Shown here: piece by piece, positions 23,730 through 49,519 of the stretch
Layout: each line of letters opens with the position of its first letter
Position numbering within the stretch: position 1 is the first letter of the stretch
Source: an uncultured Gemmatimonadales bacterium
GTDB taxonomy: Bacteria > Gemmatimonadota > Gemmatimonadetes > Gemmatimonadales > GWC2-71-9
Reading direction: 5' to 3'
NCBI GenBank assembly: GCA_963821525.1
Contig: CAWGED010000019.1
Location: 544,001 to 608,000 of the forward strand
Length of the DNA stretch: 64,000 bases
The notes under the pieces: generated by a model
Databases searched by the model: none
What the model was told of the DNA's origin: nothing
What the model saw: only the letters and a program-made list of their open reading frames with translations
Made by a program: the position numbers and the translations under genes

Positions 23730-23768
23730 TCCTCATCTCTCGAACACGTTAGCGCAGGAGCAGCCTTC

Positions 23769-26080: not shown

Positions 26081-26098
26081 ATCCTACCTCTACTGCAG

Positions 26099-27213: not shown

Positions 27214-27367
27214 TTGGAAGCTTCCTTTATGAATGGGGGCCGAGTCCGGGCTGCAGGTGCTCGCTGCCGACCTGCCGGGGGATTACGTTAGCGTTCCACC
27301 GCCAGCGCCAATTTCTCAGATCTCAGGCTTAGGGCAAGGCCTGACGCTTCAGGACCAGGGGGATTCC

Positions 27368-29392: not shown

Positions 29393-29524
29393 GGCCAGAC
29401 CAGACCTGTGTCCGAAGCTTCGCAGCGCCTGGCGTAGGAGATCCTGAAGAATCTCCGGCGGCAGACGCCAGCTTTGTAAGCCGTCGCATCCTCGCTGGAC
29501 CAACCAACCTCCGAGAGGCTTTCA

Positions 29525-30001
29525 ATGGCCGTGCTTCGATCTGCTTTGCCTACCACTATGGTGGCCGTAATCGCGGTGGCTCTAGGCTGCGGCAGCGACA
29601 GCTCCACCGAGCCCGCCGACCCCGTCGCCGTCGCGCGCACCCAGACCTACGACCGCATCAACCAGCTCCGGGCCCTCGTCGCGCTCCCGCCCCTCACGGT
29701 GTGGACCGGCGGAGAAGACTGCGCCGATGGACAAGCCTTTGCCGATTACACGGCGGACACGCCGCACAGCACGTTCGGTCAGTGTGGAGAATCGGCCCAG
29801 AACGAATGTCCGGGCTGGCTCGCGATCTCCCAGATTCCGACCGACTGCTTGCAGGCGATGTGGGATGAAGGGCCGGGAAGCGATCCCCAGACCCACGGGC
29901 ACTACATTAACTTGACCAACACCTCCTACCACCAGGTTGCGGTCGGATTCTACGTATCGCCGACCAACGTCGTCTGGGCGACGATGAACTTCGCGCCGTG
30001 A
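29525..30001 (+). CDS. CAP/SCP-like domain lipoprotein
   Basis: ALGC lipobox plus INQLRA..ALPPL, GHYINL and VAVG motifs resembling CAP domains. Confidence 0.65.
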   Translation: MAVLRSALPTTMVAVIAVALGCGSDSSTEPADPVAVARTQTYDRINQLRALVALPPLTVWTGGEDCADGQAFADYTADTPHSTFGQCGESAQNECPGWLAISQIPTDCLQAMWDEGPGSDPQTHGHYINLTNTSYHQVAVGFYVSPTNVVWATMNFAP

Positions 30002-30106
30002 GCGCAGCTGGCGTTACCTCTCGTTCAGCGTAGGACCTCCTGGGAACTCCCTCGGCAGTGTTCCGGTCGAAGCGGGACCGCTTCCCTGGGCACTGACAGG
30101 CGTGAA

Positions 30107-30175
30107 TTGATCCATCGCCTCCCTCGGCGCTCTCTGACCGATACCGGATCGAGAGGGAGCTGGCTCAGGTATGGC
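30107..30175 (+). pseudogene. Degenerate orphan kinase 5' stub
   Basis: ...GCGCTCTCTGACCGATACCGGATCGAGAGGGAGCTGGCTCAGGTATGGC resembles [18 protein letters not shown] and ends at the MITE. Confidence 0.8.
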
Positions 30176-30178
30176 ATC

Positions 30179-30288
30179 CCGGTCCGTCGCTAAAGCGAGA
30201 CTGGCTATTGTCGCTCAAGCCACATGATTTGGGACACAGGAGTCACTTCAGTGACACCAGCCGAGTCGCGGCTTCAGCCGCGGACCGG
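30179..30288 (+). mobile_element. Non-autonomous IS200-like element (left + right hairpin ends, no tnpA)
   Basis: Bounded by CCGGTCCG...CGGACCGG. Internal hairpins match, in reverse complement, the ends flanking tnpA at 46081-46124 and 46579-46619. Confidence 0.75.
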
Positions 30289-30316
30289 CTGCTGGGCTCC
30301 AACCACCCGGAGCGCG

Positions 30317-32995
30317 ATGCCTGATTCGCCTTCTCGCCTCTCGTCCGCCCTCGCCGACCGCTACCGGATCGAGCGGGAGCTGGGTCAGGGCGGCATGGCG
30401 ACCGTCTATCTCGCCCAGGACCTGAAGCACGATCGCAAGGTCGCCATCAAGGTGCTCCGCGCCGAGCTGGCCGCGGTGATCGGCGCCGAGCGGTTCCTGG
30501 CGGAAATCAAGACGACGGCGAACCTGCAGCACCCGCACATCCTCCCGCTTCACGACTCGGGAGAGGCCGACTCTTTCCTTTATTATGTGATGCCCTTCGT
30601 GGAGGGCGAATCACTGCGCGATCGGCTGAACCGGCAGAAGCAGCTCCCTATCCCCGATGCGGTTCGAATCGCGAGTGAAGTGGCGTCCGCGCTGGACTAC
30701 GCCCACCGCCACAGAGTGATCCATCGCGACATCAAGCCAGAGAATATTCTGCTCCATGACGGGCGAGCGATGGTCGCGGATTTTGGGATCGCGTTGGCGG
30801 CCAGCAAAGCGGGCGGCACCCGGATGACCGAAACCGGCATGTCACTCGGCACCCCGCACTACATGTCGCCGGAGCAGGCGATGGGGGAGCGGGAGATCGG
30901 GCCGCCGAGCGACGTGTATGCGCTGGGTGCCGTGACCTACGAAATGCTGGTAGGCGAGCCGCCCTTCACCGGGCCCACGGCGCAGGCGATTGTGGCCAAG
31001 GTGATGACGGGCGAGCCGGCAGACATCACCGGACAACGGCGAACGGTTCCGCCGCATGTAGACGCCGCAGTACTGACCGCACTGGAGAAACTGCCGGCGG
31101 ATCGCTTCGAGTCCGCGGCGGAGTTCGCCGAGGCGCTGGCAGGAAATTCTTCGCGAAGCACCACACGACTGGCACACTCAAAGTCTGCCAGCGCCGCCGG
31201 TCCCTGGCGCGCCATCAGCGCCGTGCTCGGCGTGGTTGTCCTCGTGCTCCTGGGACTCGCGGCCTGGAACTTCAGCCGAGGGCGAGCCCCATCCGGCCCC
31301 AGCCTCTATGACGCCGTGCTCCCTGACAGCGCCCCAATGACCTTCGCCGCGGCGACGGCGACCACCTCCTACGGGACCTCGCTCCGGAACCTGTCGATCT
31401 CGCCCGCGGGCGACTTCGCGGTGTACGCGGCGCGGCAGGGCGACTCCACCCTCCTCTGGTACCGGAGCCTGCGGGACGCCACCGCCCGCCCGATCGCCGG
31501 GACACTCGGTGCAACCGCACCGCGCATTTCACCAGACGGAGCGCGCATCGCTTTCGTCATCGGTGAACGGGTCATGGTCGTCCCGGTCGCGGGCGGCGAG
31601 GTCCGCCGGCTGCTCGAAGGCGAAGCCGCGACTTCGCTGCAGTGGGTCTCGAACACCGAACTCCTCGCCGTGGACCTCGATGGCTACCGGCTCAAACAGC
31701 TGAACCGCGAAGGCAGCAGCGCGCAGACCAAGTCCATTCCGCGCTGCGTGCTCGCGCAATGGGTCCCGGAGCAGAAACAGCTGCTCTGCTCATTCAACCG
31801 GACCGCCCTGCTGTTCGATCCGGAATCGGGAAAGCAGTGGTCCCTCCGCGCAGCCCTGCCCGATGGGTCGCCGGGAAGTCTGCTGACGGGCTCCGCCTTT
31901 CGTATCGTGAACAACCGCTACCTCGTCTATCTCGCGGTGGACGGCAGCCTGCTTGCCGCCCGCTACGACCCCGCCACCCACGTGGCGCTGCGGTCGGTGA
32001 CGCTCCTGGCCGGGGTTCGGCGGGAGGCCATCGGCGAGGCGCAGTACGATCTCTCGGCGGATGGCACACTGCTCTACGCACCCGGCGCGGACGCGACGAT
32101 CGGCAGGATGGTCAGCCTTCGGGCTGGAGGAACGCCGCAGCCGCTGCCGGTGGAGACGGCAGACTTCCAGCGCTACGACCTGAGCCGCGATCGGCGCTGG
32201 CTGGCGGCGGCGGTACAGGCCACCGAGGGCCTTGAATTGCGGGTCTACGATCTGCGCGACGGGCAGCATTTCACCTGGCTCAAGGGCGGAAGTGGTGCGC
32301 CATCCGATCTGGAGTCCCGGATGGAGGGTGGCTGCTGGTGGCGGTGCGCGATTCCACACGCTTTACCATCCTCCGCGGCACACCAAGCTCGGGGGCCCGG
32401 CCGGACACGCTGGCGAGCTGGGAGTTCGACCGCGCGAATCCCGATCCGATCGACCTGCACGACGATCATCTGGCGGTGGCGCAGAACTGGGCCGGGTCCA
32501 CCGCCATGCGCTTCGACCCCAGTCTCGCCCATCCCACCTTCGACACCGTGCTCACCGGCGGGCGTTTCCCGTCGGTGTCCCGAACGGGAAGCTCCTGCTG
32601 TACCAGACACTCGAGGGAGGCAGGATCGAGGTCACCTCCTTCCCGGTGAGTGGGCGCCGCTGGCAGCTGGCCTCGGACGGCGCCGAGCCGCTCTGGCTCT
32701 CGGCCACCGAGGTGCTGTACCGCAAGGGAGTCTCCTGGTACCTGGCCCGGCTCAATCCGGAGACCGGCGAGCCCGCCGGCGCCGCGACCTTCTGGGCCCG
32801 CGATCCGCGCTTCTCCGACACCTCGGGCTGGTCCAACCGGCCGTCGCACGACGGAGGGATCATCTACGTCCAGGGTCCGGGAGAAGTGACGGCGTCGTAC
32901 TTCGCGTGATCCCGAACTGGGTGGAACAGATGAAGGCGGCGGTGGACGCGCTCCATGAGCGGCTCGGCGGGCGAAAATCGACAATAATTGCCTGA
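30317..32995 (+). CDS. Ser/Thr kinase K6: kinase + TM + beta-propeller, about 4 frameshifts in 32285-32900
   Basis: Intact kinase motifs. The C-terminus is stitched from frames 32232, 32338 and 30224 and ends LRVIPNWVEQMK. Confidence 0.88.
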   Translation: MPDSPSRLSSALADRYRIERELGQGGMATVYLAQDLKHDRKVAIKVLRAELAAVIGAERFLAEIKTTANLQHPHILPLHDSGEADSFLYYVMPFVEGESLRDRLNRQKQLPIPDAVRIASEVASALDYAHRHRVIHRDIKPENILLHDGRAMVADFGIALAASKAGGTRMTETGMSLGTPHYMSPEQAMGEREIGPPSDVYALGAVTYEMLVGEPPFTGPTAQAIVAKVMTGEPADITGQRRTVPPHVDAAVLTALEKLPADRFESAAEFAEALAGNSSRSTTRLAHSKSASAAGPWRAISAVLGVVVLVLLGLAAWNFSRGRAPSGPSLYDAVLPDSAPMTFAAATATTSYGTSLRNLSISPAGDFAVYAARQGDSTLLWYRSLRDATARPIAGTLGATAPRISPDGARIAFVIGERVMVVPVAGGEVRRLLEGEAATSLQWVSNTELLAVDLDGYRLKQLNREGSSAQTKSIPRCVLAQWVPEQKQLLCSFNRTALLFDPESGKQWSLRAALPDGSPGSLLTGSAFRIVNNRYLVYLAVDGSLLAARYDPATHVALRSVTLLAGVRREAIGEAQYDLSADGTLLYAPGADATIGRMVSLRAGGTPQPLPVETADFQRYDLSRDRRWLAAAVQATEGLELRVYDLRDGQHFTWLKGGSGAPSDLESRMEGGCWWRCAIPHALPSSAAHQARGPGRTRWRAGSSTARIPIRSTCTTIIWRWRRTGPGPPPCASTPVSPIPPSTPCSPAGVSRRCPEREAPAVPDTRGRQDRGHLLPGEWAPLAAGLGRRRAALALGHRGAVPQGSLLVPGPAQSGDRRARRRRDLLGPRSALLRHLGLVQPAVARRRDHLRPGSGRSDGVVLRVIPNWVEQMKAAVDALHERLGGRKSTIIA

Positions 32996-33006
32996 CACCT
33001 GACACC

Positions 33007-35645
33007 TTGACCATCGACCTCGACTATCGACCGCCCTCGCCGACCGCTACCGCATCGAGCGGGAGCTGGGCCAGGGCGGCATGGCCACCGTGTATCTCGC
33101 CCAGGACCTGAAGCACGACCGAAGGTCGCGATCAAGGTGCTGCGTCCCGAACTCGCCGCCGTGATCGGGGCCGACCGGTTCCTCTCCGAGATCAAGACCA
33201 CGGCCAACCTGCAGCATCCGCACATTCTGCCGCTCTTCGACTCCGGGCGACGTGCCGAGTCGGCCGACCTCGTTCTACGTCATGCCGTTCATCGAGGGCG
33301 AGAGCCTCGCGACCGGCTCAATCGGGAGAAGCAGCTCCCGATCACTGATGCGGTACGGATCGCCACCGAAGTCGCCTCCGCCCTCGACTACGCCCACCGG
33401 CACGGCGTCATCCACCGCGACATCAAGCCGGAGAACATCCTGCTGCACGATGGACGCGCGCTGGTGGCCGACTTCGGAATTGCGCTGGCCGCGAGCAAAG
33501 CCGGCGGCAGCCGGATGACCGAGACCGGGATGTCGCTCGGCACGCCGACACTACATGAGCCCCGAGCAGGCCATGGGTCAGCGGGAAATCACCGCCCGGA
33601 GCGACATCTATGCCCTCGGTGCGATGACCTACGAGATGCTGACCGGCGAGCCGCCGTTCAGCGGACCCACCGCGCAGGCCATCGTGGCGAAGGTGCTCAC
33701 CGAGGAGCCGCGGCCGCTGATCCCCCGCCGCCACACCATCCCCCCCGACGTAGAAGAGGCCGTCCTGACCGCGTTGGAGAAATTGCCCGCGGATCGGTTC
33801 GATTCGGTCGCGGAGTTCGCCCGGGCGATCGGCGGCGATGGCAAAGGAGTGCGCTCGCCTGGAAAGCGAAGGCCGGTCCCGGCTCCCCGCCCATCCCGTC
33901 AGCTCTACCTGGCCCTCGCCCTCGGATCAGTCGCGCTGCTCGCGGCAGGCTTCTACGCCGGTTCGCGCCGGGGCGCGAGCGATTCACCCATCAAGGGACT
34001 CGGTGTCTCCACCAAGGTCACCTGGGATCCTGGGCTCGAGATCGAGCCGGCGCTCTCTCCGGATGGTAAATACCTGGCGTACGCCGCCGGCAACACGACC
34101 AGCCTGCGGATCTACGTGCGGCAAGTGAATGGCGGACGCCCGATTCCGCTCACCGAGGATTCGCTGGAGGTGCAGACCAATCCGTCCTGGTCGGGGGACG
34201 GCTCCCGCATTCTGTTCCTTTCCAACGGCGGGGTATTCAGCGCACCTTCCGCCGGCGGGGCGGCCCGACCGGAGATGCGCTCTCCACCGGGACTGCAGAT
34301 CATCTCCGCGGTCATGTCGCCCGATGGACAGACTCTCGGATATGCCGCAGGGGACTCGGTCTATCTGCGCGATGCGTCGGGGGCCGGCCGGCCTCTGGCC
34401 CGAGTGGCCGAGGCCTCGCTGTGCCAGTGGTCTCCCCGAGGCGAACTATTGGCCTGTGCGTCCGGGAATTCCTTCTACTCACGGGTCGGCGCGTTCTTCG
34501 GCAACCTGTCGCCCAGCCGGGTGACCGTGATCCGGGTGAAGGACGGGAGGACGACGACGGTAACTGACAGTACCTCCATCAATCAGAGCCCGGTCTGGTC
34601 TCCCGATGGGAAATGGCTGTACTACGTCTCGAGCAACCAGGGGCCGAGAGACGTCTTCGCGATTCGGATCGGGCGTGACGGCCGACCGATCGGCGCAGCG
34701 ACGCGGCTTACTGCGGGGCTCGGGGCCCAGTCAATCGCGCTGTCCGGAGACGGGCGCCGGATCGCGTACGCTGCATACGTGGGAACCTCGAACATCTGGT
34801 CGCTGCCGTTTCCGCCCAACGGCGAGACCCAGGCGAACGCGGTGCCGGTCACCAGCGGATCGCAGACCATCGAAGGCGGCCGGCCCTCGGTCGACGGCAC
34901 CTGGCTCTACTATCCATCAGATGTCAGTGGCAACTCCGAATTGTACCGGATGCGGCTGCCACACGGAGAGCCGGAGCAGTTGACCACCGATCCCAGCGAC
35001 GATTTCTCCCCCAAACCTTCGCCTGATGGCCGTGAGCTCGCCTTCCATTCGTGGCGCGCGGGCACCCGCGATATCTATGTGCTCCCGCTCGATGGTGGAC
35101 CGATACAGCAGGTAACCTCCACCCCACTCCAGGAGTCAGGGCCCGACTGGTCGCCCGACGGGCGAGCGCTGGCCTACGCCATGTTTGGCCAGCCGGGAGG
35201 CATTCGAGTCGTGCGGCGGAATACGGCCGGCGTTTGGGGCACGCCGGTGGAGCGAAGCTCGGCTGGGGTCTTGCCGGAGTGGTCTCCCGACGGGCGCTGG
35301 ATCGCTTATACCAGCACATTCCTGGGTGGCTCACTCTTCATCGTTGGTCCTGATTCTGGGGCGCCCCGGCTGGTCCTGGATTCCACCAATACCTGGGGCA
35401 TCCGGGCGCAGATGGCACATTGGAGCCGGGACAGCCGGACCCTCTATTTCAAGTCGGGGGATGCCAGGGGGAACGCCGCCTTCTGGGCCATTCCAGTGAC
35501 CGGAGGCACCCCGCGTCTGCTCATCCGGTTCGACGATCCCACTCGTCCCGCCTCTCGCCCCGAATGGTTCATCGGCAAAGGCCGGATGTATTTCGCGATT
35601 CAGGATCGGCAGAGTGACATCTGGGTGATGGAGGTGCGGAGGTGA
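33007..35645 (+). CDS. Ser/Thr kinase K7: kinase + TM + PD40 beta-propeller, several frameshifts in the kinase domain
   Basis: TTGACCATCGAC leader at 33007. ORFs 33137, 33252 and 33555 give kinase motifs and a propeller ending QSDIWVME. Confidence 0.88.
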
Positions 35646-35735
35646 AAGGGGACTTGTCCAACATCTCGCCGTCCCTCACCACCGCCCTCGCCGACCGCTA
35701 CATGATCGAGCGAGAGCTGGGTCAGGGGGGCATGG
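35642..35735 (+). pseudogene. Orphan kinase 5' stub ([21 protein letters not shown])
   Basis: Overlaps the K7 stop. Kinase similarity ends at GGCATGG, immediately before the MITE. Confidence 0.85.
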
Positions 35736-35739
35736 TGCG

Positions 35740-35851
35740 CCGGTCCGTCGCTAAAGCGACGACTCGGCTATTGTCGCTAAAGCGACGTGACTTGGGAGGT
35801 AGGAGTCACTTCAGTGACATCAGCCGAGTCGCGGCTTGAGCCGCGGACCGG
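35740..35851 (+). mobile_element. Non-autonomous IS200-like element (best-preserved copy)
   Basis: The left part matches the reverse complement of 46579-46619 at 36/41 nt. The right part matches the reverse complement of 46081-46124, including a compensatory stem change (GTCACTTCAGTGAC vs GTCGCTTCAGCGAC). Confidence 0.82.
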
Positions 35852-35883
35852 CAGACTATAGACTCGCAACACACGACCGGCGA

Positions 35884-38236
35884 TTGACCATCGACTCTCG
35901 ACTCGCCGCCGCCCTCGCCGACCGCTACCGGATCGAGCGGGAGCTGGGCCAGGGCGGTATGGCGACGGTGTATCTCGCCCAGGACCTGAAGCACGACCGC
36001 AAGGTCGCGGTAAAAGTGCTGCGACCCGAGCTGGCCGCGGTGCTCGGCGCCGAGCGATTCCTGGCTGAGATCAAGGTCACCGCCAATCTCCAGCATCCCA
36101 ACTTGCTGCCGCTCTTCGACTCGGGTGAAGCGGGTGGCTTCCTCTACTACGTCATGCCGTACGTCGAGGGAGAGACGCTGCGAAGCCGCCTCGAGCGCGA
36201 GCGGCAACTCCCGGTCGACGAGACCTCCCGCCTGATCACACTGATGGCCGGAGCACTCGACTATGCCCATGCCCGCGGGGTGATCCATCGCGATCTCAAG
36301 CCGGAAAACATCCTGCTCCAGGCCGGCCAGCCGGTGATCGCCGACTTCGGCATCGCACTGGCGGTGGCCCAGGCCGGCGGCTCCCGGGTTACCGAGACCG
36401 GACTCTCACTCGGCACTCCGCACTACATGAGCCCGGAGCAGGCGGCCGGCGAGCGCAACATCGATGCGAAATCCGACCAATACGCGCTCGCGGCGGTGAC
36501 CTACGAGATGTTGAGCGGCGAGCCGCCTCACACCGGCCCCACTGCCCAGGCCATCATCGCCCGGATGATGACGGAGAAGCCCCGGAGCCTGCAGGCGACC
36601 CGTTCCAACGTGCCGGTGGGGGTGGATCTCGCCGTCGGGCGGGCGTTGGCCAAGTCACCGGCCGACCGGTTCCCGTCCTGCGACGCCTTTGCCCAGGCGC
36701 TGGTTGCCGGCATGACCTCGGGTGCGGCTACTGTCGCCGACGCGGCTGTCCCACGGCGTCGCGGGCGATGGGTCGCCGCCGCCATCGCCCTGGTTGTGTT
36801 GGCTGGTGCGGCCCTGGGACTGACACGCTATCTGGGTGGAAGCGCCAGCGACCATTGATTCGATTGCGGTCCTCCCGCTCGACAACTATTCCGCCGACTC
36901 CACCCAGGACTACTTCGCCGAGGGGATGACGGATGAGCTGACCAGCGACCTCGCCATGATCAGCCAGTTGCGGGTCACCTCGCGCGGGTCGGCGATGCAG
37001 TTCAAAGGCAGGAATCGCCCGCCGACCCCGGAGATCGCGAAGGCCCTCGATGTCGACGCCGTTGTGGAGGGCTCAGTGTCCCGCTCCGGTGATCGGGTGA
37101 GGATCACCGCCCAGCTGATCGATGCCAGGGCCGACCGGCATCTTTGGGCCGAGACCTTCGAGCGCAATTCGAGCGACGTACTGGCACTCCAGGCCGAGCT
37201 GGCGTCGGCCATCGCCAGTGCGATCAACGTGCGGCTGACGCCGGGGGAGCAGTCCCGCCTCTCGGCTGCGCCGACCGTGGATCCGGGAGCCCACGACGCC
37301 TACCTCAAGGGGCGGTTCTTCTTCAATCGTCCGAGCGACGAGAACCTGCAGAAGGCCATCGTACAGTTCAACGAGGCGATCAAGCTGAGCCCGAACTTTG
37401 CCCCGGCGTATTCGGGGCTCTCGGATGCCTACACCTGGGCGGCCTACAACGAGGGATTCATTCGTGCCAGCGAAGCGAAGCCCCTGGCGAAAGCCGCCGC
37501 GGAACGGGCGGTTCAGCTCGACAGCCTGTCGGCGGAAGCCCACACCTCGCTGGGGGTCTACCTCGCTTGGTTCGACTACGACTGGGACCGAGGCGAGCGG
37601 GAACTCCGTCAGGCGATCGCCCTCAATCCCAGCTACGCCTACGCGCACGACCAGCTGAACCAGCTGCTGGGAATCATCGGTCGCTTCGACGAGGCGATTG
37701 CCGAGGGCCAACGGGCCATCGCGCTCGATCCACTGTCGCCCTCGATCCTGGAGGACCTGGCGACGACGTTGATCTACGCCGGCAAGGCGGCGTCGGCGCT
37801 GGAGCTTGCGAAAAAAGCCGCGGAGCTCGACCCGACCTTCTTCTTCCCGCCGGCTACGGAGGGGATTCTGGCGCTCCAGACCGGCAACTACCGCGAGGCC
37901 ATCGCGAAGTTTGAGCGCTCGCGGGCCCTGGATGCCCCGCCGTTCGTGACCGCCTACCTGGCGTACGCGTAGGGCATCTCCGGTGACCGCAGCCGCGCGA
38001 TGGCGACGCTCGGAGAACTCCAGAAGATGTCGCACGGGGAGGAGGCAGCCCCGTTCAACCTGGCACTGGTGTATCTCGGCCTCGGCGATCACGCGCGCGC
38101 GCTCGACTATCTCGAGCAGGCACATGCGGCCAGCTCGGAGATGCTGGTCTGGCTCAAGGTGGACCGGATCTACGATCCGCTGCGGTCGGAGCCGCGCTTC
38201 GTAGCCCTGATGAAGCGCCTGAACTTCGTCCAATGA
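35884..38236 (+). CDS. Ser/Thr kinase K8: kinase + TM + TolB_N-like + TPR; frameshift near 36836 and in-frame TAG at 37970
   Basis: MTIDSRLAAALADRY leader, HRDLKPEN, SIAVLPL and YFAEGMTDEL, TPRs, and a C-terminal DPLRSEPRF in the same frame after the TAG. Confidence 0.88.
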
Positions 38237-38336
38237 GGCGCACGGGCTGAGCGGCTTGAGGAATCGGCGGCTCGGCACTATTCGGCAATCGGCAATCGAT
38301 AACGGGCAATAGCCTGACAACCTGACACCTGACACC

Positions 38337-40619
38337 TTGACCATCGACCCTCGACTATCTTCCGCGCTCGCCGATCGCTACCGGCTCGAGCGGGAGCTGG
38401 GCCAAGGCGGCATGGCGACAGTGTATCTGGCCGAGGATCTCAAGCACCGACGAAAGGTCGCGGTGAAGGTGCTGAAACCCGACCTGGCCGCGGCACTCGG
38501 CGCTGAACGCTTCCTGCGCGAAATCGAGACAACCGCGAATCTCCGCCACCCTCACATCCTGCCGTTGCTTCGACTCGGGCAGGTCATGGCGTCGACGGAC
38601 GATCTTTCTCTTACTACGTGATGCCGCTGGTGGAAGGAGAGTCCTTGCGCGATCGACTGAAGCGGGAGACGCAGCTGCCAATCCCGGACACGGTGGCGAT
38701 CATTCCGCGAAGTAGCCGACGCGCTGGCCTACGCGCACGGTCGAGGCGTGATCCATCGCGATATCAAGCCGGAGAACATTCTGCTCGAACGGGGCCATGC
38801 CGTCGTCGCAGATTTCGGTATCGCGCGTGCGGTGAGCACTGCGGGCGGCGAGAACCTCACCCAGACCGGCATGTCGCGTGGGCACTGCCGGCCTACATGA
38901 GTCCGGAGCAGGCCCTGGCCGATCAATACGCTCGACGCCCGAAGCGACCAGTACAGCTCTGGGCTGCTGTCCTCTACGAGTGCCTGACCGGCGAGATCCC
39001 CTTCGCCGGCAGCGCCGGTGCCATGCTGGGCGCAGCGGATAACCGAGTGCACCACCGTCCGCGCGCAACAAGCGGCCGGAGGTTACCGCCCAGGTTGACC
39101 ACGCCCTGTCGTACGCGCATTGAGCCACCGATCCATCGGCGCGGTTTGCCTCCTGCCAGGAACTGGCCGCGGCGCTGGTGGCGCCACACTTCGCTCCCAG
39201 GCCGGGTGCGCGGCACTGGCGCGGCGAGGCATCGTTGTCCTGCCATTCGCCAACCGGAGTCCCGACGCCGACAATGAATACTTCAGCGACGGGCTCACCG
39301 AGGAGATCATCGCCGACCTCGCCCGGATCAAGGCGCTGAGTGTCATCTCCCGCACCTCGGCGATGCAACTCAAGGGGACCGACAAGAACGTGAAGGTCAT
39401 CGGCCGGGAACTCGGCGTGCGCTACGTGCTGGAAGGAAGCGTGCGGAAGGCCGGCTCGAGCCTCAGGATCACCGCACAACTGGTCGATGCCGACACCGAC
39501 ACACCGCTCTGGTCGGAGAAGTACAGCGGCACCATGGACGACGTGTTCGAGGTGCAGGAGCGGGTGTCCCGCGAAATCGTGAAGGCGCTCGGCGTGACGC
39601 TGAGTCCCGACGAGGACCGTCACCTGGCGCAACGGCCGATCGAGAACGTGCAAGCGTTCGAGCTGTACCTGCAGGCGCGTCTCGAGTTCCGGCGCTACGG
39701 CGCCTCGATCGACCACGGCTTGGCGTTGCTCAACCGGGCCATCGAGATCGAAGGCGAAACTCCGCCGCTTCAGGCACTCGTCGCCTGGGCCAAAGTCTCC
39801 CTGGTCCGCTCCGGCCATGCACCCGATGGGCGACCGCTGGACGAAGCCGAGGCGGTGGCGAAGGCCCTGATCCTGCGTGCTCCGGAGGCGCCCTACGGCC
39901 ACGCCCTGCTGGGATTCATCGGCTATGAGCGCTGCCGAATGGCCGATGCGGTGCGCCATCTGCGGGCCGCACTCGAACGCGAACCCAATGATGCCGATGC
40001 CTTTTTCTTTCTCGGCGTTTCCTACATCGCAGCCGGCCAGGAGGCTCTGGCTGCGGAGACAGCGGCTCGGCTGATGGCATCCGATCCACTTTCACCATTG
40101 GGGTGGATGTTGACCGGCGTCGTGCCGTGGTTCATGGGGCGGCTCGGGGAGGGATTGCCAAGCCTGGTCCGAGCGGTGGAGCTGGACCCCGAAAACCTCC
40201 TGGCGCGTTGGTGCCTTGGGTACACCCATACCCTCGTGGGAGATGTGGAGGCGGGGACGAAGCATGCCGAGGTGCTCCGAACCAAATCGCCGGACCTGCC
40301 TTACACTCGCCATCTTCTGGCCCTGGTCGCGGCACTCTCCGGCCAGAGCGAAGCCGCTCTCAAACACCTGGCATCGGTGGAAGGTCTCGACGGCCACCAC
40401 AAGATGCATCTGGCCGAGGCCTTCGCGATGGCCGGTGACATCGACCGGGCACTCTCCCTGCTCGAGGAGGCGGTCAACCAGGGCTTCCATCCCTATCGCT
40501 TCATCGCGGAGTATTGTCCCTTCATGGCTCCGCTCCGCGGATTGCCGCGGTTCGAGGCGCTTGCCGCCCGCGCCCAGCGACTCACCGCGGAGTTCGGTAT
40601 CGCGGGAGGTAACTCATGA
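38337..40619 (+). CDS. Ser/Thr kinase K9: kinase + TolB_N-like + TPR, multiple frameshifts, no obvious TM
   Basis: [15 protein letters not shown], kinase pieces in several frames, [10 protein letters not shown]...YFSDGLTEE, TPRs and PLRGLPRF. Confidence 0.85.
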
Positions 40620-40646
40620 GCGACGCGAGGCCCGACTCGCCGCATA

Positions 40647-40695
40647 CCGGTCCGTCGCTAAAGCGACGACTCGGCTATTGTCGCTAAAGCGACGT
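40647..40695 (+). mobile_element. Isolated left end of the IS200-like element
   Basis: CCGGTCCGTCGCTAAAGCGACGACTCGGCTATTGTCGCTAAAGCGACGT is identical to 35740-35788. Confidence 0.82.
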
Positions 40696-40714
40696 CTCAC
40701 ACACACGACGTCCA

Positions 40715-43374
40715 TTGACCATAGACCATCGACTATCGACCGCGCTGTCTGACCGCTACCGCATCGAGCGGGAGTTGGGCCAGGGCGGCATGGCCACGGT
40801 CTACCTCGCCGAGGATCTCCGAGCATGGCCGCAAGGTGGCTATCAAGGTCCTCCGCCCCGAGCTCGCCGCGTCGATCGGGGCCGAACGGTTTCTGCGGGA
40901 GATCAAGACGATCGCGAAGCTGCAGCATCCCCACATTCTCGGTCTCATTGATTCCGGAGAGGTCGAGGGGGCCGCGTACTACGTGATGCCCTTCGTGGAA
41001 GGGGAATCGCTGCGGGACCGGCTCGATCGCGAGAAGCAGCTCGCCATCACCGACGCGGTCCGCATAGCCACCGAGGTCGCCTCGGCCCTCGACTATGCGC
41101 ACCGCCACGGGGTGATCCACCGCGACATCAAGCCCGAGAACATCCTGCTGCACGATGGCCAGGCCCTGGTCGCGGACTTCGGGATCGCACTCGCCGTGAC
41201 TCAGGCCGGGCGGCACCCGGATGACCGAGACCGGCCTGTCGCTCGGCACGCCGCACTACATGAGCCCCGAGCAGGCGATGGGCGAGCGCGAGCTAACCCC
41301 GCGGAGCGATGTCTACGCCCTCGGTTGTCTGACCTTCGAGATGCTCGCTGGAGACCCGCCCTTCACCGGGCAGCACCGCACAAGCCATCGTCGCCAAGGT
41401 CCTGAGTGAGAAACCGCCTTCGATCCGGCGGCTGCGCGACCGGGTTCCCGAATCGGTCGAAGAGGCGGTGTTCGTCGCCCTCGAGAAGCTTCCGGCTGAT
41501 CGGTTCGCGACCGCCGCCGAGTTTGCTACAGCACTGAACGGAGGCGGCACCAGCGCCCCGCGCCACGGCAGCACCAGTGCGAGGAGCCGAATCGCCGAGC
41601 CGCCGAGCCGTCGAGTAGCATTCCTCCTGCTCCTCGCCCTCATGCTCGGCGCTGGCTGGTTCCTCGGGCGTCGAAATAGCAACGCCGCCGCAGGACCGCC
41701 GTCGAGTCGTCTCGCGATGTTGTCACCCGCTCTGGGAGGGTCTGGGGCCGGCGGATTGCATCGCCAGCTGACGCTCACGCCCGACGGTTCCGCGGTGGTC
41801 TATGTCGGCGCTTCGGTTCGACAGGGGGCGACCACACTGTGGATTCAGCGAATGGACCAGCTCGAGCCCGCGCTGATTCCTGGGAGCGAACTCCTTCTCG
41901 CCCCTCAAGTGTCGCCCGACGGACGATGGCTCGCGGCCCAGAACGTCGCCGGCGATGTCATCCGCTTCCCCATGCAGGGCAGCACTGCCCAGCCGGCCCC
42001 TGTGTCCCGCGGGTTCTCCTTCTTTGCCTGGGGTCCCGACGGGAGTCTGTGGATTACCCGGGCACCGTTCCGCACAGTCGAGCGGGTGGCCCAAGGAAGT
42101 GATTCACTCGAGGTGCGCATCAAGGACCTGAGTCGAGGCCAGTACATCCAACAGATACTCGATGATGGGAGGCGCGCTGTCGTAGTTCAGGGCGACGGAT
42201 CTTCGAGTGGCCCATGCTTCATTATGGACCTCGCAACCGGCCGGTTGACCCCGCTGATCGAAACGCCCATCACCGCCGCGCGCTATGCCGCGGGATATCT
42301 GATTTACGCCCGGCCGGATGGAACCCTCCTCGCCGCTCCGCTCGATGCGCGTCAGACTCGAATCACCGGCGAGGCAGTTACCGTCGCAGAGGGAGTCTCC
42401 GTGACCGGAGGCGGCGACGCCCAGTTCGCGGTCGCGCCCAGCGGCACCTTGGTCTACGTCCCCGAGGAGCCGAGGTCACTGGTGTTCGTCGACCGGTCCG
42501 GATCGGCGCGGTCGGCGACCGAAGCGCGCCAGAACTTCCATGCCCCCTCGTTTTCGCCCGATGGGCGCCGCGTGTCGGTGGATTTCGTTTCCGCCGACGG
42601 CCGGGACGTGTGGATCCTCGATCTGGACCAGGGGACGCTTTCCGTGGTACCTTCGATCGCGACGGACACGACGCGGTGTGGACCAGAGACGGAAAGCAGA
42701 TCACCTACACGTCGTACCGCTCCGGCGTCTTCGGGGTCTATCGGACCCGCCCGGGCAGCGGCGCGCCCGCCGAATCGCTGCTGGCCTCGCCGTCGCTGGG
42801 CTACACCGGCCAGTGGCTGCCCGACGGTAGCGGGCTCGTGACCGTGACCTTCGACCTTCAGCCCCGATCGGGTCAGGACATCGGCCTCGTCACCCACGGC
42901 GGCCACGGACCGATCGAGCCGATCGTCGCCACGCCGTATCGGGAGTTGTACCCCTCCCTTTCTCCCGATGGCCGCTGGCTGGCGTTCGTCTCCGATCAGT
43001 CGGGACAGAGTCGAGTGTATCTGCGCCCGCTCCAGGGAGACGGTGATCAAGTTCAGATCTCCCAGGGCAACGCCGATGAGCCGGTCTGGGGGCCGGATAG
43101 CCGGGAGCTGTTCTATCGCGCCACCGATACCGGGCGACCCGAGCTGATTGCGGCCAGGCTCGAAACCACTCCGACCCTTCGAGTCCTTGAGCGGCGCCCG
43201 CTCTTCTCGGTCGAGAACTACGTACCGGCCACGCCACACGCCAGCTATGCCATCTCACCCGATGGCAAGACCTTCGTGATGGTCCAGCGCAACCCGGCGA
43301 GCCGCATCATGGTAATCCAGAATCTGCCGGGTCTGGTGGGCCGGCTGCGCGACGCGCAGAGTGCGCCCCATTGA
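40715..43374 (+). CDS. Ser/Thr kinase K10: kinase + TM + beta-propeller, several frameshifts
   Basis: MTIDHRLSTALSDRY leader. ORFs 40836, 41221, 41468 and 42214 stitch into kinase + TM + SPDG repeats. Confidence 0.87.
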
Positions 43375-43398
43375 GTCGGGGCCTCAGCCGCGAACTAG
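43373..43398 (+). mobile_element. Degenerate right-end remnant of the IS200-like element
   Basis: GAGTCGGGGCCTCAGCCGCG matches the MITE right end GAGTCGCGGCTTCAGCCGCG at 18/20 nt (21/26 when extended). Confidence 0.55.
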
Positions 43399-43445
43399 CG
43401 GCATATCGGCAACCGGCAATCACCTGACCCCGACACCTGACACCC

Positions 43446-45868
43446 TTGACCATCGACCATCGACTATCGACCGCGCTGTCTGACCGCTACCGCATCGAGC
43501 GGGAGCTGGGCCAGGGCGGCATGGCTACGGTGTACCTCGCACAGGACCTCAAGCACGATCGCAAAGTGGCCGTGCAAGCTGCTGCGTCCGAGGAACTCGC
43601 TGCGTCGCTGGGGCAAGGAGCGCTTCCTCCGCGAGATCAAGGTCGCGGCCAATCTGCAGCATCCGCACATCCTGCCGTTGTATGATTCGCGGTGAGGCCG
43701 ACGGGGTCTGCCTGTACTACGTCATGCCGCTATCGTCGAAGGCGCAGTCGCTCCGCGACAAGCCTGCACGAAGGAGAGGCGAGCTGCCGATCGGCGGACG
43801 CGGTGCGCATCCTGCGCGAGGTCGCCGACGCGCTGACCGTAAGCCCACGGTCACGGCGTGGTTCACCGCGACATCAAGCCGGAAAACGTGATGCTGCGCG
43901 GCCGGCACGCCGTGGTGATGGACTTCGGCGTGGCTAAGGCGCTCAGCGCGGCCCGGGCGGCAGTCAGCTCACCACGATCGGCGTCGCCCTCGGGCACGCC
44001 GACCTACATGGCGCCGGAGCAGGCAGTGGCCGATCCCCACGTGGATCATCGACGGAAGGCGCGACCTCTACGCGCTTCGGCGTGGTGGCGTACGAGCTGC
44101 TGGCGGGACAGCCGCCCTTCACCGGGACCACCCAGCAGGAGATCCTGGCGGCGCACGTGACCGCGGACGCGCCGAGCCGGTCGCCAACCACCGGCCGGCC
44201 ATGCCGCCGGCGCTGGCCGCCGCGGTGATGCGGTGCACTGGAGAATCGGCCCGCCGATCGGTGGCAGAGCGCCGAGGAGTTGATCACCCAGCTCGAATCG
44301 GTCTTGACCCGAGCGGCGGGATAACGCCGACGGCAACGTCTGCCGGTCACCGCGGTTCCCGCACCAGGGCTCCCGTCGCACGCTCGCAGCGTTCGCGGTC
44401 GGGGCGATTCTGCTGGTGGCCGGGGTCGAGGCGTGGCGGGTTGACCCACCACGCCGGGGAGAATCGTCCGGTGTTTCCTCCTCCGGGATCGCCAGGCGCG
44501 TCGGCTGTCTTTGCCTTTGCGAGTCGCGGAGCGCGGGACGACCTCGGATGCGTACCTGGGCGACGGCATGGCGACCGACTTGACCAACGACGCTGGCCGG
44601 AATGTGACCGGCCTCCATGCGTATCCGCGCGAACGTTCGCGCCTTCGCCCTGCGGGGCGAAGACCGCCCGCGAAGATGGGGCGGCGCTCACGGCGGACGC
44701 CATGGTGTCGAGGGTACCGTCGGCAAAGTCGAGAACCGGCTGCGGGTGACGGTGTCAGCTGGTGAACGTCGCGGATGAGGCGGTATCTCTGGAGTCAGCG
44801 ACTACGACGTGAGCGCGAAAAGGATCTCTACGCCCTCCAGGATTCGGCCGCGGCCGCGATCGCGATCGGCGCTAGGGGAAGTCGGTCTCGGCCGGCGAGA
44901 CGATCCGGCTCTCGTCGGCGCACCGCACCGCGAACCCGGAGGCCTACGATCTCGTCCTGCGCGGCCAGTTCCTGACGGAGCAGAACACCGAGGCCAGTCT
45001 CCAGCAGGCCATCGCGCTGTTTGAACGAGCCGCCGCTCTCGATTCCACGTACGCCGATCCGTGGAACGGGATCGCTCAGGCCTGGATCTTCCTCGCCGAT
45101 ACCTACCTGGCCCCGCGCGCGGCGGTTCCTCCGATGTCTGCCGCGATCGACAAGGCTCTGGCGCTCGATCCCAGGTCGGCGTGGGCGCACGCACTCAAGG
45201 GAAGCCTGCTCTCCGCGTATCTCCGTGACTACGCGGCCGGGGAACGGGAGTATCTCGCGGCAATCGCCCTGGACAGTACCACGACATTCGGCGGCGACTA
45301 TGGCTGGGTGCTGCATTCGCGCGGCCTGGAACCGATTCGGCATTGGCGGTTTTTCGCCGGGCGCGGCGGCACAATCCGTTTGCCTTCGCCCCGCTGAATG
45401 GAATCGTGGCCGTCATGAGTAATGCGGGGATGCTGGACAGCGCCATCAGTGCTTTGCCGCGCCCTCCAACAGATGGGCCCACACTCATGCGGAGATCAGC
45501 TGCTGATGCAGATGGGCCGGGCACGAGAGGTGGTCGTCGCGTGGAAGGCGAAGCCCTCCACCACACCGGATGAGACGCTGGACCTGGCCGAGGCGTTGGC
45601 GCTGGCCGGCGATCCCGCGGGCGCGCGACGCGAGCTCTCGGCGGCGCTCAGCGCCGCGGGGTCTCGCTATGTCCGCGAGGACAACGTCGCGGCCGTCTAC
45701 CTCGCCCTGAAAGACACCGCCAGGACACTGGAATGGCTCGGACGGGGCCTCGATGCCCAGGCGGCGAACATGGCTACGATCAATCGCAATTGGAGATTCA
45801 AGCCGCTGCATGGCTACCCGCCCTTCGACGCCATCGTGAGAAAGGCGGGGTTGCAGCCGTCGCCATGA
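43446..45868 (+). pseudogene. Ser/Thr kinase K11: kinase + TolB_N-like + TPR, very heavily frameshifted (pseudogene or low-quality sequence)
   Basis: Fragments in many frames: [57 protein letters not shown] pieces and PLHGYPPF. Confidence 0.78.
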
Positions 45869-45993
45869 ACCGACTGGCAGGGCGGTGAGGGGAGCAGTCG
45901 ATAGTCGATGGTCGATGGTACCGCACCGTACGGGAACGTAGTGTTTGCGCCGGTGTCCCAGGATTTGACCCCATATCCATGGACCACCGATCA

Positions 45994-46077
45994 TTGACCA
46001 TCGACCATCGACTATCGACCGCGCTGTCTGACCGCTACCGCATCGAGCGGGAGCTGGGCCAGGGCGGCATGGCCACG
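45994..46077 (+). pseudogene. Orphan kinase 5' stub ([28 protein letters not shown])
   Basis: The first 80 bp are identical to 43446-43525. It ends at the right-end hairpin of the IS200-like element. Confidence 0.9.
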
Positions 46078-46523
46078 CTTTCCGCGGCTGAGAGCCGCGG
46101 CTCGGCTGATGTCGCTGAAGCGACGGGCCGGGCGGTCCAACCCGGTATGGCCTCATCGGGATGGTGCGTGTGCTGATGGCGCACATAGGCTGCCGCCACA
46201 CCCCGTTGGCGAGGACTCACACTGATCACGCTGTATCCTTTGGCCCATCGCAGGGCGGGGTCCTGCAGTGGCGCGCCACGATTGATCAGGGTAGCGGTGC
46301 CGCCCTTCATGCGTTGCAGCAGTCGGGGAATGACGGTAGAAGGATGCAGGCGCACCAGCAAATGCAGGTGCGTGGTCACGATACCGAGCTCGAGTACCCG
46401 CGCCCGCTCCTGCCGAGCAATAATGGGGAGATGCTTCCAGAGGTACTCGGCACGGGGCCGATCTATGGTCGGCTGACGATCACGGGTGGTCCAGACGATA
46501 TGGACCAGGAGCTGATGATGCAT
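46035..46523 (-). CDS. tnpA: Y1 HUH transposase (IS200/IS605 TnpA)
   Basis: VHIVWTTRDR, HUH motif HLHLL, MKG, W..GY.V.SVS and catalytic YVRHQ (YxxxQ). Confidence 0.9.
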   Translation of the reverse strand: MHHQLLVHIVWTTRDRQPTIDRPRAEYLWKHLPIIARQERARVLELGIVTTHLHLLVRLHPSTVIPRLLQRMKGGTATLINRGAPLQDPALRWAKGYSVISVSPRQRGVAAAYVRHQHTHHPDEAIPGWTARPVASATSAEPRLSAAESVAMPPWPSSRSMR

Positions 46524-46620
46524 ACATCAGGATCGACGCATCCCTCGATTGCGGCGGTACCATTCCAACGCACCGCAGGTCGCTTTAGCGACCTCAGCCG
46601 AGCCGTCGCTTCAGCGACGA
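46078..46620 (-). mobile_element. IS200/IS605-family (tnpA-only) element with subterminal hairpins
   Basis: tnpA is flanked by hairpins CCGCGGCT-GAG-AGCCGCGG and GTCGCT-GA-AGCGAC (46082-46124), and by GTCGCTTTAGCGAC / CGTCGCTTCAGCGACG (46579-46619). Exact ends are uncertain. Confidence 0.8.
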
Positions 46621-46647
46621 GCGCGGGCGGCGATCCTGAGAATCACG

Positions 46648-49350
46648 ATGCTTGACTCGCTCTCCCGCCTTACCGCCGCCCTCGCCGACCGCTACCGCAT
46701 CGAGCGGGAGCTGGGCCAGGGCGGCATGGCCACGGTGTATCTCGCCCAGGACCTGAAGCACGAGCGCAAGGTCGCGGTCAAGGTGCTGCGACCGGAGCTC
46801 GCGGCGGTGATCGGCGCCGAGCGATTTCTGAGCGAGATCAAGACCACGGCGAACCTGCAGCATCCGCACATTCTGCCCCTGTTCGACAGTGGGCGGACGG
46901 GCGGCAACGGGGACGAGCGGGCGGACGACTTCCTGTTCTACGTCATGCCGCTGATCGAGGGCGAGTCGCTCCGCGACCGGTTGAATCGCGAGAAACAGCT
47001 CCCGATTGGGGATGCGCTCCGCATCGCAACCGAAGTCGCGAGTGCGCTGGACTATGCCCACCGCCACAACGTCATCCATCGCGACATCAAGCCCGAGAAC
47101 GTCCTGCTGCACGACGGGCGCGCGCTGGTGGCCGACTTCGGAATTGCACTGGCCGCGAGCAAGGCGGGCGGCAGCCGGATGACGGAGACCGGGATGTCGC
47201 TCGGTACTCCGACCTACATGAGCCCCGAGCAGGCGATGGGAGAACGGGAGATCACCGCCCGCTCCGACGTCTACGCCCTGGGCGCCATGACCTACGAGAT
47301 GCTGCTGGGGGAGCCGCCGTTCACCGGGCCCACGGCGCAATCGATCGTGGCGAAGGTGATGACCGAGAAGCCGGCTTCGCTCATCTCGCGGCGGGATCGG
47401 ATCTCACCGGCCGTCGAGGATGCGGTGCTGACCGCGCTGGAGAAGCTGCCGGCCGACCGGTTCGGGAGTGCAGCGGAGTTTTCGGCGGCGTTGAATGGGG
47501 ATAGCGGCTCGGCGACTCGGCGGCTCGGCGGCTCGGCCCCGCAGCCCGAGGCTCGGCGGGGCGTAGGCCGGCCCGCGCTTTATGCGATGCTGGTCATCAC
47601 CTCGCTGGCCGCGGTCTTCTTCGCCTGGCGCGCCGCGCATCACCCCGCCGGCCCGGTCACCCGACTCACACTCGACCTGCCGGAACTCAGGGTCAATCAC
47701 CTCAGCTACTACGGGAGCGCCCTCGCGGTGGCTCCCGACGGCTCGTCGCTGGTTTACGTCACCGAGAGTCCGGGCACGCCTACCCGGCTCATGGTGCGGG
47801 AACGCGGGAATCTTACGCCGCGGCTGCTCGAAGGGACCGACGGAGCGGATGGGCCGTTCTTTTCGCCCGACGGCCGCTGGGTGGCTTACACCGCCGCCAA
47901 GAAGATCTTCAAGGTGCCGGTCGCAGGGGGGACTCCGGTGCTCGTCGCGGATGCGGCGGCCAATGAGCTGGCCAGCGGAACCTGGCTGGACGACGGCCGG
48001 ATCGTCTTCACCAATCAGTCCTTCGAGATCCTTACCGTGCCGGCGGCCGGGGGGCAGGTTTCCCGGGTCGTACCACCACCCGTCAGCTTCGGCTGGGCCT
48101 TTCCCACCGCGCTGCCGGTCAAGGATGTCATCCTGATCACCGAGTGCAGCAACAACTGCTCGCGGATGAACCTGTTGGCCATGAATCTGAAAACGCTGGC
48201 GCGGGACACCATCCTTCCCAACACCTCACGGGGCTTCTACCTCCCCACCGGTGATCTCCTCGCGGTGCAGCAGGATGGCAACGTGGTGGCGGGACATTTC
48301 GATCTCGGCAAGCTGCGATATACCGATCCACCCGTCGTGGTGCAGAGCGCAGTCCAGCTCGAACTCGGCATCACGCCCGAGCTGGCCGTGGCAAATGACG
48401 GGACGCTCATCTACCTCGCCGCCAATCAGACGGGAACCGATGCGACCATCGCACGGGTGGATCGGACCGGCAAGGCTCGGGTGCTCGATCCCGACTGGAC
48501 GGCGCGGGTCAGCAGCCTGGCCCTCTCGCCCGACGGGCGCCGCGTCGGGATCAGCACCCTCGAGCAGTCCGGCAATGTGCTCTGGATGAAAGAGCTCGAC
48601 GCCGGCCCCCTGACCCAGCTCAGCTTCGACGGCACCATCAACTACCGCCCGTCGTGGCGCCCCGACGGACGCAGCATCAGCTTCACCTCGGACTTCAAGG
48701 GACTGGCCTCGTACCTGTACACGATGCGGGCGGATGGCAGCGACAAGCCGGAGCGAGTCCTGCCCAACGAACCGCTCCAGGTCGATGAAGCGGTCTGGTC
48801 ACGGGATGGCCGCTGGCTGGTGTACCGGACCGGCGTCACCGGAGGCTCGCGCGACATATACGCCCGGCAGCTCTCGGGCGACACCAGCCGGATCACCGTC
48901 GCGGCCGGCGCCGCCGATGAGTACATGGCGGCGCTTTCGCCCGACGGCCGCTGGATCACCTACGTCTCGGTCGAATCAGGCAAGGAGGAGGTCTACGTCC
49001 GGCCTTTTCCCGAGACCAGCAGGGCGCGGTGGCAGGTCTCCGCGGCGGGCGGATCCAATCCCGCCTGGTCGCACTCGGGACGTGAATTGTTCTATGTCGA
49101 CCGGGCCGACAGCCTGATCGCGGTGAGCGTGACCGGTACCACCGACTTCCAGATCGGCCCCAGGCGCGCGCTGTTCAGCACCCGGCCATTCCTGCTGCTG
49201 CCATTTCACCGCACGTACGACGTGTTCCCCGACGATCAATCGTTCCTGCTGCTCAAGCGTCCGTTCACCGCCACCACCGAGGCCAATCGGCTGACGGTCG
49301 TGCTGAACTGGTTCAGTGAGGTGAAGGCGAAGGTGAGACAGGGGAGGTGA
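46648..49350 (+). CDS. Ser/Thr kinase K12: kinase + TM + beta-propeller
   Basis: Intact ORF with all kinase motifs, a TM, SPDG repeats and C-terminal LTVVLNWFSE. Confidence 0.94.
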   Translation: MLDSLSRLTAALADRYRIERELGQGGMATVYLAQDLKHERKVAVKVLRPELAAVIGAERFLSEIKTTANLQHPHILPLFDSGRTGGNGDERADDFLFYVMPLIEGESLRDRLNREKQLPIGDALRIATEVASALDYAHRHNVIHRDIKPENVLLHDGRALVADFGIALAASKAGGSRMTETGMSLGTPTYMSPEQAMGEREITARSDVYALGAMTYEMLLGEPPFTGPTAQSIVAKVMTEKPASLISRRDRISPAVEDAVLTALEKLPADRFGSAAEFSAALNGDSGSATRRLGGSAPQPEARRGVGRPALYAMLVITSLAAVFFAWRAAHHPAGPVTRLTLDLPELRVNHLSYYGSALAVAPDGSSLVYVTESPGTPTRLMVRERGNLTPRLLEGTDGADGPFFSPDGRWVAYTAAKKIFKVPVAGGTPVLVADAAANELASGTWLDDGRIVFTNQSFEILTVPAAGGQVSRVVPPPVSFGWAFPTALPVKDVILITECSNNCSRMNLLAMNLKTLARDTILPNTSRGFYLPTGDLLAVQQDGNVVAGHFDLGKLRYTDPPVVVQSAVQLELGITPELAVANDGTLIYLAANQTGTDATIARVDRTGKARVLDPDWTARVSSLALSPDGRRVGISTLEQSGNVLWMKELDAGPLTQLSFDGTINYRPSWRPDGRSISFTSDFKGLASYLYTMRADGSDKPERVLPNEPLQVDEAVWSRDGRWLVYRTGVTGGSRDIYARQLSGDTSRITVAAGAADEYMAALSPDGRWITYVSVESGKEEVYVRPFPETSRARWQVSAAGGSNPAWSHSGRELFYVDRADSLIAVSVTGTTDFQIGPRRALFSTRPFLLLPFHRTYDVFPDDQSFLLLKRPFTATTEANRLTVVLNWFSEVKAKVRQGR

Positions 49351-49352
49351 GT

Positions 49353-49484
49353 GGAGACGGAGACGGGAGACGGGAGACGGAGGACGGGGGACGGGAGACG
49401 GGGCGGACGGGCGGACGGAGGGCGGACAGGGCGGACCGACGAACCGACGAACCGACGAACCGACGAACCGACGAACCGACGAAC
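49353..49484 (+). repeat. Compound short tandem repeats: GGAGACG-like, GGCGGAC-like and (ACCGACGA)x6
   Basis: Read directly between the K12 stop and the K13 leader. The perfect octamer run is 49435-49482. Confidence 0.92.
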
Positions 49485-49519
49485 GTTAACGGCTGACGGC
49501 ATCTAACAACCAACGACCA

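Follow-up and report, generated by a model that had tools for sequence, protein, structure and literature searches.

A REPIN-like repeat family and its IS200-type Y1 HUH gene as probable passengers of a Gemmatimonadales kinase array

Main

The DNA analysed here (the window) is a stretch of 64,000 nucleotides, C19:544001-608000, of the 4.33-Mb, 81% complete genome of an uncultured Gemmatimonadales bacterium (G000). Most of it (2196..64000, + strand) is taken up by Ser/Thr kinase paralogues in tandem, whose PD40/TPR sensor domains vary, in an array that runs past the window to approximately C19:621000; 86 kinase loci are present in the genome, about 23 of them in this array. Within the array lies tnpA, a Y1 HUH transposase-like gene of 162 aa (46035..46523, - strand), between hairpin-forming repeats that recur without the gene at three further places in the window, mostly behind short copies of a kinase 5' end (stubs). 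Here, we describe the gene, the repeats and the stubs, and weigh what connects them with the array.

Many array genes carry frameshifts, which are probably read errors given that contigs of other runs show single-base indels at several such places. Joints in four read runs, inspected for excision circles, are dominated by kinase paralogues, and the contigs came from mixed relatives. The tnpA junction as an assembly artefact was ruled out by a contig of an independent run (contig 23, run X3), which spans 46044-46704 with 12 differences, and by recurrence of the junction in other genomes.

Repeats and stubs in the window

The repeat unit is a double hairpin of 41-44 nt consisting of an inner hairpin, a GCCGAG linker and an outer hairpin. 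The hairpins fold better than shuffled sequence (z -2.3 to -6.5). A fixed pattern matched 184 distinct units, and in these each of the ten most frequent variants of the outer hairpin is a perfect stem.

The tnpA module begins with kinase 5' stub T (45994..46080, +), which has a heptamer-type leader, stops after GGMAT and is 49/51 identical to the restart segment. The left unit (46081..46124, -) abuts the stub with its outer foot, the right unit (46579..46621, +) is inverted relative to it, and a restarted, full-length Ser/Thr kinase with a PD40 beta-propeller follows (46648..49350, +). No stop codon interrupts the tnpA frame ahead of the left repeat (46035-46124), so that its last ~30 residues read through the repeat and the antisense stub; some orthologues end at 137 aa.

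Two gene-less elements are inverted pairs of units, resembling the doublets of repetitive extragenic palindromes (REPs) known as REPINs. REPIN A (30178..30289; units 30183-30223, -, and 30242-30284, +) follows the decayed stub A (30106..30177, +) and precedes a restarted kinase (30317..32995, +) whose 96.5% orthologue in a genus mate, G252, has no REPIN in front. REPIN B (35739..35852; units 35744-35786, -, and 35805-35847, +), which as single-stranded DNA (ssDNA) is one long hairpin (z -6.5), stands between stub B (35654..35738, +) and a restarted kinase-TPR gene that is frameshifted in this assembly (35884..38237, +). Element C (40646..40695, -) is a single unit, a half-REPIN with 49 nt identical to the left unit of B.

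The initial annotation, made from these letters alone, had located all three elements correctly, and its 36/41 nt match of the left end and its compensatory A-T/G-C stem swap, which lies in the inner hairpin, are likewise exact. It had also placed a kinase stub before all four elements. This holds for the tnpA module, A and B; ahead of C there are a ribosome-binding site, an ATG and ~9 codons (40616..40645, +) with no Gly-loop stub. The inversion of tnpA relative to the gene-less elements, read by the annotation as unusual for strand-specific targeting, is real for the outer-hairpin variants within the window. As a strand signal it does not stand, because both 'ends' of the module are one inverted repeat family whose outer-hairpin variants are found at either end of tnpA among orthologous loci and are thus interchangeable. 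Inverted repeats, some of them degenerate, flank tnpA at 17 GTDB orthologue loci.

The transposase gene

The tnpA product matches PF01797 (E=1e-17) and has H52-L-H54 and Y113, an HuH motif with one predicted catalytic tyrosine, as expected of the Y1 HUH superfamily. H52, Y113 and Q117 are invariant in 10/10 aligned rows, as are the Y, Q and last H of YVRHQHTHH (Y113-xxx-Q117-xx-HH). Together with the folding of the repeats, this bears out the annotation of tnpA as a gene with hairpin ends, and supports a Y1 HUH protein with putative cognate hairpins. The product passes the IS200 model NF033573 (58.6 bits, cut-off 55) and fails the model of REP-associated tyrosine transposases (RAYTs), NF047646 (21.3 bits, cut-off 80). 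The class-2 motif Y-xxx-NP is absent, with Y-xxx-Q instead, the nearest solved structures are IS200-family transposases (E 2e-8), and the closest relatives come from Gemmatimonadota.

In G000 the gene is single-copy apart from a ~50% identical paralogue, a second Y1 gene flanked by the same repeat family, and near-identical multicopy spread of the whole element is not seen. In an array elsewhere that holds two copies, divergence is evident, with identities of 62% and 69% to the query. Another kind of Y1 gene, 27% identical, with Y-xxx-Q-xx-HH and different GC-rich flanking palindromes, occurs at C12:7151-7498 and C1:35930-36277 of G000; the contigs are near-identical there, possibly a strain duplication in the assembly, and by its motif it is the only 1.2-like protein in the genome.

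Repeats are scattered yet enriched at kinase starts

A hidden Markov model (HMM) recovered 13 units in G000 at 24-47 bits, against a best match of 15.3 in the reversed genome, having been built from the same 13 units; two extra matches at 17 and 15 bits were left out. Seven units lie in the window and six elsewhere. The initial annotation had the elements only at kinase-stub junctions, which does not hold: 6/13 units and 4/8 loci in G000 are not at kinases, namely a tRNA-Ser 5' stub, the 3' side of a tRNA-Leu, an intergenic pair and the surrounds of the second Y1 gene. The binomial figure for kinase loci (4/8, p ~4e-8) is not used as proof, since the copies are related.

Across the order, the strict pattern is present in 24/251 genomes, with few copies per genome (up to 28 by pattern search). 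One weak match was found in the plasmids scanned, and viral contigs gave 0 matches to the pattern. A metagenome scan gave at least 125 stretches, partly redundant and 45 with 300-nt flanks only. Among the matches listed, 104 clusters have at least 150 nt on each side: 18/104 have a kinase start within 250 nt, 7/104 a stub and 20/104 either, leaving 84/104 with neither. The genome clusters behave alike, with a kinase start or stub at 2/23 and neither at 21/23; the counting script misses some short stubs that are visible by eye. The annotation had proposed a genome-wide map of the hairpins, with a test for enrichment at kinase starts, as a check. For the most part the repeat is scattered in extragenic DNA, but its enrichment at kinase starts is strong.

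Relatives of tnpA are found in 154/401 family genomes at E<=1e-15, a tally that counts in one unpublished genome. Nearly all of 47 distinct copies with fetched flanks (short in a few rows) have a repeat nearby. Twenty of the 47 either precede a kinase start directly, in antisense orientation, or follow a stub. These twenty belong to a single clade of 24 rows (96/84), and none of the 23 copies outside that clade is kinase-linked. The link to kinases is genuine and non-random.

Several repeat units also lie near, or close to the 3' side of, tRNA genes (L066, L098, L156 and G000 C14:2783-2921). At G000 C5:984235-984451 (L022), a perfect 37-nt duplicate of the 5' half of tRNA-Ser(CGA) lies ahead of the gene, together with one repeat unit and heptamer repeats. 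The stub is kept in the three genus mates that match at the site, decayed in G253 and G119 and equal to the restart, leader included, in G252. A repeat pair at G000 C12:198478-198687, and at L044, is a decayed REPtron, with genus mate G119 still having a Y1 gene there.

Junctions between stubs and repeats

The joins between stub and repeat are of about seven types: in two registers after the Thr codon of GGMAT, after Val, after GGMA (A, B and the genus modules), in R-I-E, after RLAA, with a degenerate paralogous repeat in G286 and, in tRNA-Ser, at the anticodon loop. They often fall at CG, in several different positions; with a GC content of 64%, this dinucleotide is frequent. Wherever a repeat follows a stub, a complete new gene start follows the repeat, which was never seen splitting a kinase. 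In rows with a tnpA module, the sensor parts of the upstream and downstream kinases mostly differ.

A general target duplication at all repeat loci was rejected: over 177 clusters, flank-to-flank repeats are all but confined to kinases, tRNA-Ser and further local repeats (cross-locus control 4/400). No guide or cleavage pairing rule modelled on PMC8266576, as far as the parts of that paper covered describe it, could be fixed from sequence.

Stubs without repeats and repeats without stubs

The window itself has two kinase 5' stubs without any repeat unit (12730..12780, +, and the internally deleted 63582..63626, +). Elsewhere such stubs stand before DUF1330, ribbon-helix-helix (RHH), permease and pyridoxal-phosphate (PLP)-enzyme genes, and most module boundaries in the arrays have no repeat. 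Conversely, in G151 and G169 REPINs stand ahead of many kinases with no stubs. Stubs and repeats are therefore separable. Whole arrays can also be free of the element: in G017, 21 kinase starts lie within ~91 kb and the 97 kb fetched contain no repeat unit, the 15 pattern matches of this genome lying elsewhere, and the G059 array has none in the 60 kb fetched. The 99% complete G221 has 28 kinase starts, no repeat and no PF01797 match; G143, in one contig, has 14 kinase starts, one repeat and no PF01797 match.

A gene outside the kinases has the same layout of stub, cargo and restart. At G000 C5:581093-584070, an amidase-like gene with a twin-arginine translocation (TAT) signal has a 135-nt 5' duplication around an antisense malic-enzyme-like gene, with no repeats (both names were taken from reading the translations). 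Homology-facilitated illegitimate recombination, as described in the parts covered of PMC5361080, is a precedent for such cargo capture.

Modules move between close genomes

In four genus mates the stub-REPIN module stands ahead of different kinases, and six orthologous kinase modules have a REPIN or tnpA module in one genome and lack it in another. G252 carries a tandem pair of the stub-REPIN module, and its genes stand in a scrambled order, the breaks falling at kinase starts. No close copy of tnpA was found in the four genus mates (completeness 75-98%), three of which hold paralogues that are 46-54% identical.

On contigs L072 and L145, a tnpA of 96-97% identity with the same junction sits behind the window's stub B, in place of REPIN B. 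The gene upstream in L072 shows an identity of 97.1% with the window and of 95.7% with G253, and the L072 stub lacks the private changes of B that the window and G253 have in common. Because of this, the exchange is placed ~45 nt upstream of the hairpin, apparently inside the shared kinase segment, although a deletion between stubs B and T would give the same pattern. A derived, junction-proximal change is common to G253 and G251 modules with different neighbours. In 13 paralogues, with three frameshifted ones dropped, fourfold third positions are 0.57-0.61 alike in the first 36 codons, against 0.37-0.56 in the rest.

Both the movement of modules and the fourfold-site pattern match the model of the Staphylococcus aureus lpl cluster (PMC2568036, parts covered). 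There, too, the unit of exchange is the 3' part of a gene, the intergenic DNA and the 5' part of the next gene, and recombination takes place at a conserved intragenic segment. Here, by contrast, that segment lies at the N-terminus, and among the contents of the modules are cargo genes and REP elements, which leave 5' stubs behind.

Comparison with known Y1 systems

The comparisons with REPtron and class systems draw on the parts covered of PMC3333891, PMC3116915 and PMC6006769. As in the REPtron or REPIN-RAYT system, one HUH-Y1 gene per repeat type is flanked by REPs, inverted doublets that would form a long ssDNA hairpin lie elsewhere in the genome as extragenic copies, and tnpA can be lost with the REPs kept, as at the C12:198.5k site. 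Unlike that system, the protein scores as IS200-type and not as RAYT, Y-xxx-NP and a GTAG foot are missing, and the copies are few, some of them carrying a gene start.

With TnpA_Y1 class 3 the family shares the REPtron-like layout and an outer hairpin that starts with the CCGAGCCGCG(A/G)C foot of the class-3 repeats in Table S1 of PMC6006769. A CCGA-containing linker precedes the outer hairpin, in agreement with the class-3 CnGA foot 5' of the hairpin. The family differs in its perfect short stems, its CTT(T/C)AG-type loop and its second, inner hairpin. Class-3 proteins also have Y-xxxx-Q, a 155-aa profile and an N-terminal extension, whereas the tnpA product has Y-xxx-Q-xx-HH and no extension, and no class-3 protein was recovered near 34 loci with class-3-type repeats. 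Subclass 1.2 shares Y-xxx-Q-xx-HH, the signature that YVRHQHTHH fits, along with low copy number and behaviour that is not IS-like; its members are generally without terminal structures and mostly from Cyanobacteria and Bacteroidetes, whereas here there are conserved inverted repeats in Gemmatimonadota. Compared with IS200/IS605 elements (IS608, ISDra2), to which the nearest structures and the putative hairpin substrates point, the element lacks a left end and a different right end on the same strand, a tnpB and near-identical copies, and a direct repeat of 50-120 nt flanks it.

As judged from motifs, then, the protein is in line with subclass 1.2, the foot of the repeat with class 3 and the layout with REPtrons. 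A 16-row tree with four references has long branches and no starred branch, and the figures of the papers cited, along with further supplement parts, could bear on the placement. The Table S1 rows searched hold no matching Gemmatimonad entry, Gemmatimonas is not mentioned in the parts of PMC3733652 covered, and a literature search, with most subscription journals outside its reach, returned no paper on these kinase arrays or this repeat family. In its working the system is REPtron/REPIN-like; it is neither an IS200 element nor a class-2 RAYT, nor is it the recombinase of the array.

Other features of the window and genome

The leaders of many array kinases, and that of tRNA-Ser, consist of short tandem repeats of a heptamer (window 33000-33030, 38290-38345, 43400-43470 and 45895-46020), and dozens of similar tracts occur across the genus. 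Two related multicopper-oxidase loci lie on either side of the array's first kinase (window 295-6756). An integron-like array at G000 C3:5400-35750 has dozens of ~105-bp attC-like repeats at a spacing of 0.3-2 kb.

Discussion

We favour, with a probability of approximately 0.6, a REPtron/REPIN-like system whose TnpA is a passenger in an array built and shuffled by ordinary recombination. The starting point is a system of Gemmatimonadales in which an IS200-type Y1 HUH gene sits between inverted double-hairpin REPs, with gene-less pairs scattered intergenically. One tnpA lineage has settled in antisense orientation closely upstream of a kinase start in the array. In a few instances the first 10-30 codons of a kinase were joined to the left repeat's outer foot, presumably through a TnpA nick or a hairpin-induced template switch. 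The product is a repeat pair, with or without tnpA, followed by a leader and kinase N-terminus, the whole lying between two copies of the array's most conserved ~55-nt segment. From then on, modules would move, duplicate and vanish by ordinary, presumably RecA-type, exchange in that segment, and the same process would shuffle whole kinase genes and let in unrelated cargo. Since the module brings a new gene start, its insertion would be harmless.

Several observations weigh against this reading. The ~seven junction types, one of them in tRNA-Ser, are all found no more than ~8 nt from the outer foot of the repeat, a closeness that recombination by itself leaves unexplained; because they hug the foot in this way, TnpA nicking may seed them. 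In G253, and at the tRNA-Ser site of G252, the stub has private leader features in common with the restart, which suggests local duplication or re-homogenisation. The Ala codon beside the junction differs between the window and L072/L145, as it would after a fresh junction cut. The 46-54% identical paralogues of the genus mates could act in trans, and absence of the element from incomplete genomes may reflect loss or assembly gaps.

An unlikely alternative, and the one that survives best, is that a REP-associated HUH nuclease makes self-repairing insertions with a mobile unit carrying a replacement start (a kinase N-terminus or the tRNA-Ser 5' half). On the tnpA-coding strand, TnpA would make one cut 3' of the outer hairpin and another far from it, in the 5' part of the downstream gene. 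The excised circle with its replacement start would reinsert where kinase or tRNA 5' ends offer the same motif, each move being TnpA-driven. The closeness of the junctions to the repeat foot fits this, most of the junctions being readable at a CG common to repeat end and target (in a GC-rich genome), as do the tRNA-Ser 5' stub with one unit, which is the only 5'-type tRNA duplication in a genome self-comparison, nested stub-repeat-stub tandems in L001, L105 and G252, and an excess of synonymous over replacement changes in tnpA (29/17 and 32/21). The idea is plausible because TnpA_REP cleaves some way off from the REPs and has been proposed to pick up fragments of genes (PMC3333891), and because guides set its cut sites (PMC8266576). 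However, the mapped crossover lies upstream of the junction, junction-proximal stub changes move together with the module, the four genus mates have mobile stub-REPINs and no close tnpA match, the stub-restart repeat is almost never found at non-kinase repeat loci, and stubs without REPs are common. If true, self-repairing insertion would allow repeated landing in one gene family without killing it, and would supply new leaders for shuffling the sensor-kinase repertoire.

Stubs could also be debris of REPINs that were inserted into, or deleted back into, an upstream kinase, with the dead remainder lost by later REP-REP recombination. The REPINs frequent just upstream of kinase starts would offer recombination partners. 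A split kinase, with its remainder after the repeat, was found in 0/744 distinct repeat flanks, however. All 38/38 kinase-homology matches abutting a repeat start at the N-terminus; 37/38 end by query residue 76, one weak match ends at 105 and none lies deep in the catalytic domain, a count in which sensor-domain truncations would be under-detected. We regard this origin as quite improbable. The 0/744 result also speaks against the proposal, made in the initial annotation, that the element targets the Gly-loop codons of kinases, as do the frequent REPINs before stubless kinases and the location of most copies elsewhere.

Its other proposal, a domesticated TnpA recombinase that builds and shuffles the array, draws on the tight linkage of one tnpA clade to arrays across genera and is largely refuted, with hardly any chance left to it: arrays exist and shuffle without gene or repeats (none inside G017's and most of G059's), the kinase-rich G221 and G143 have no Y1 gene, repeats are missing from most module boundaries, this tnpA is absent from the closest genus mate and the mapped crossover is ~45 nt from the hairpin.

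On the favoured reading, with TnpA as a passenger, the kinase arrays of Gemmatimonadales would be recombination-driven cassette arrays, in which a conserved N-terminal segment swaps sensor modules, admits cargo and leaves 5' stubs. If TnpA does make the stub junctions, they would be a natural case of HUH insertion that repairs the gene it hits. The repeat family itself is a REPtron-like family that pairs an IS200-type Y1 protein of the 1.2 motif with class-3-like repeats, and as such bears on how IS200 transposases became REP enzymes.

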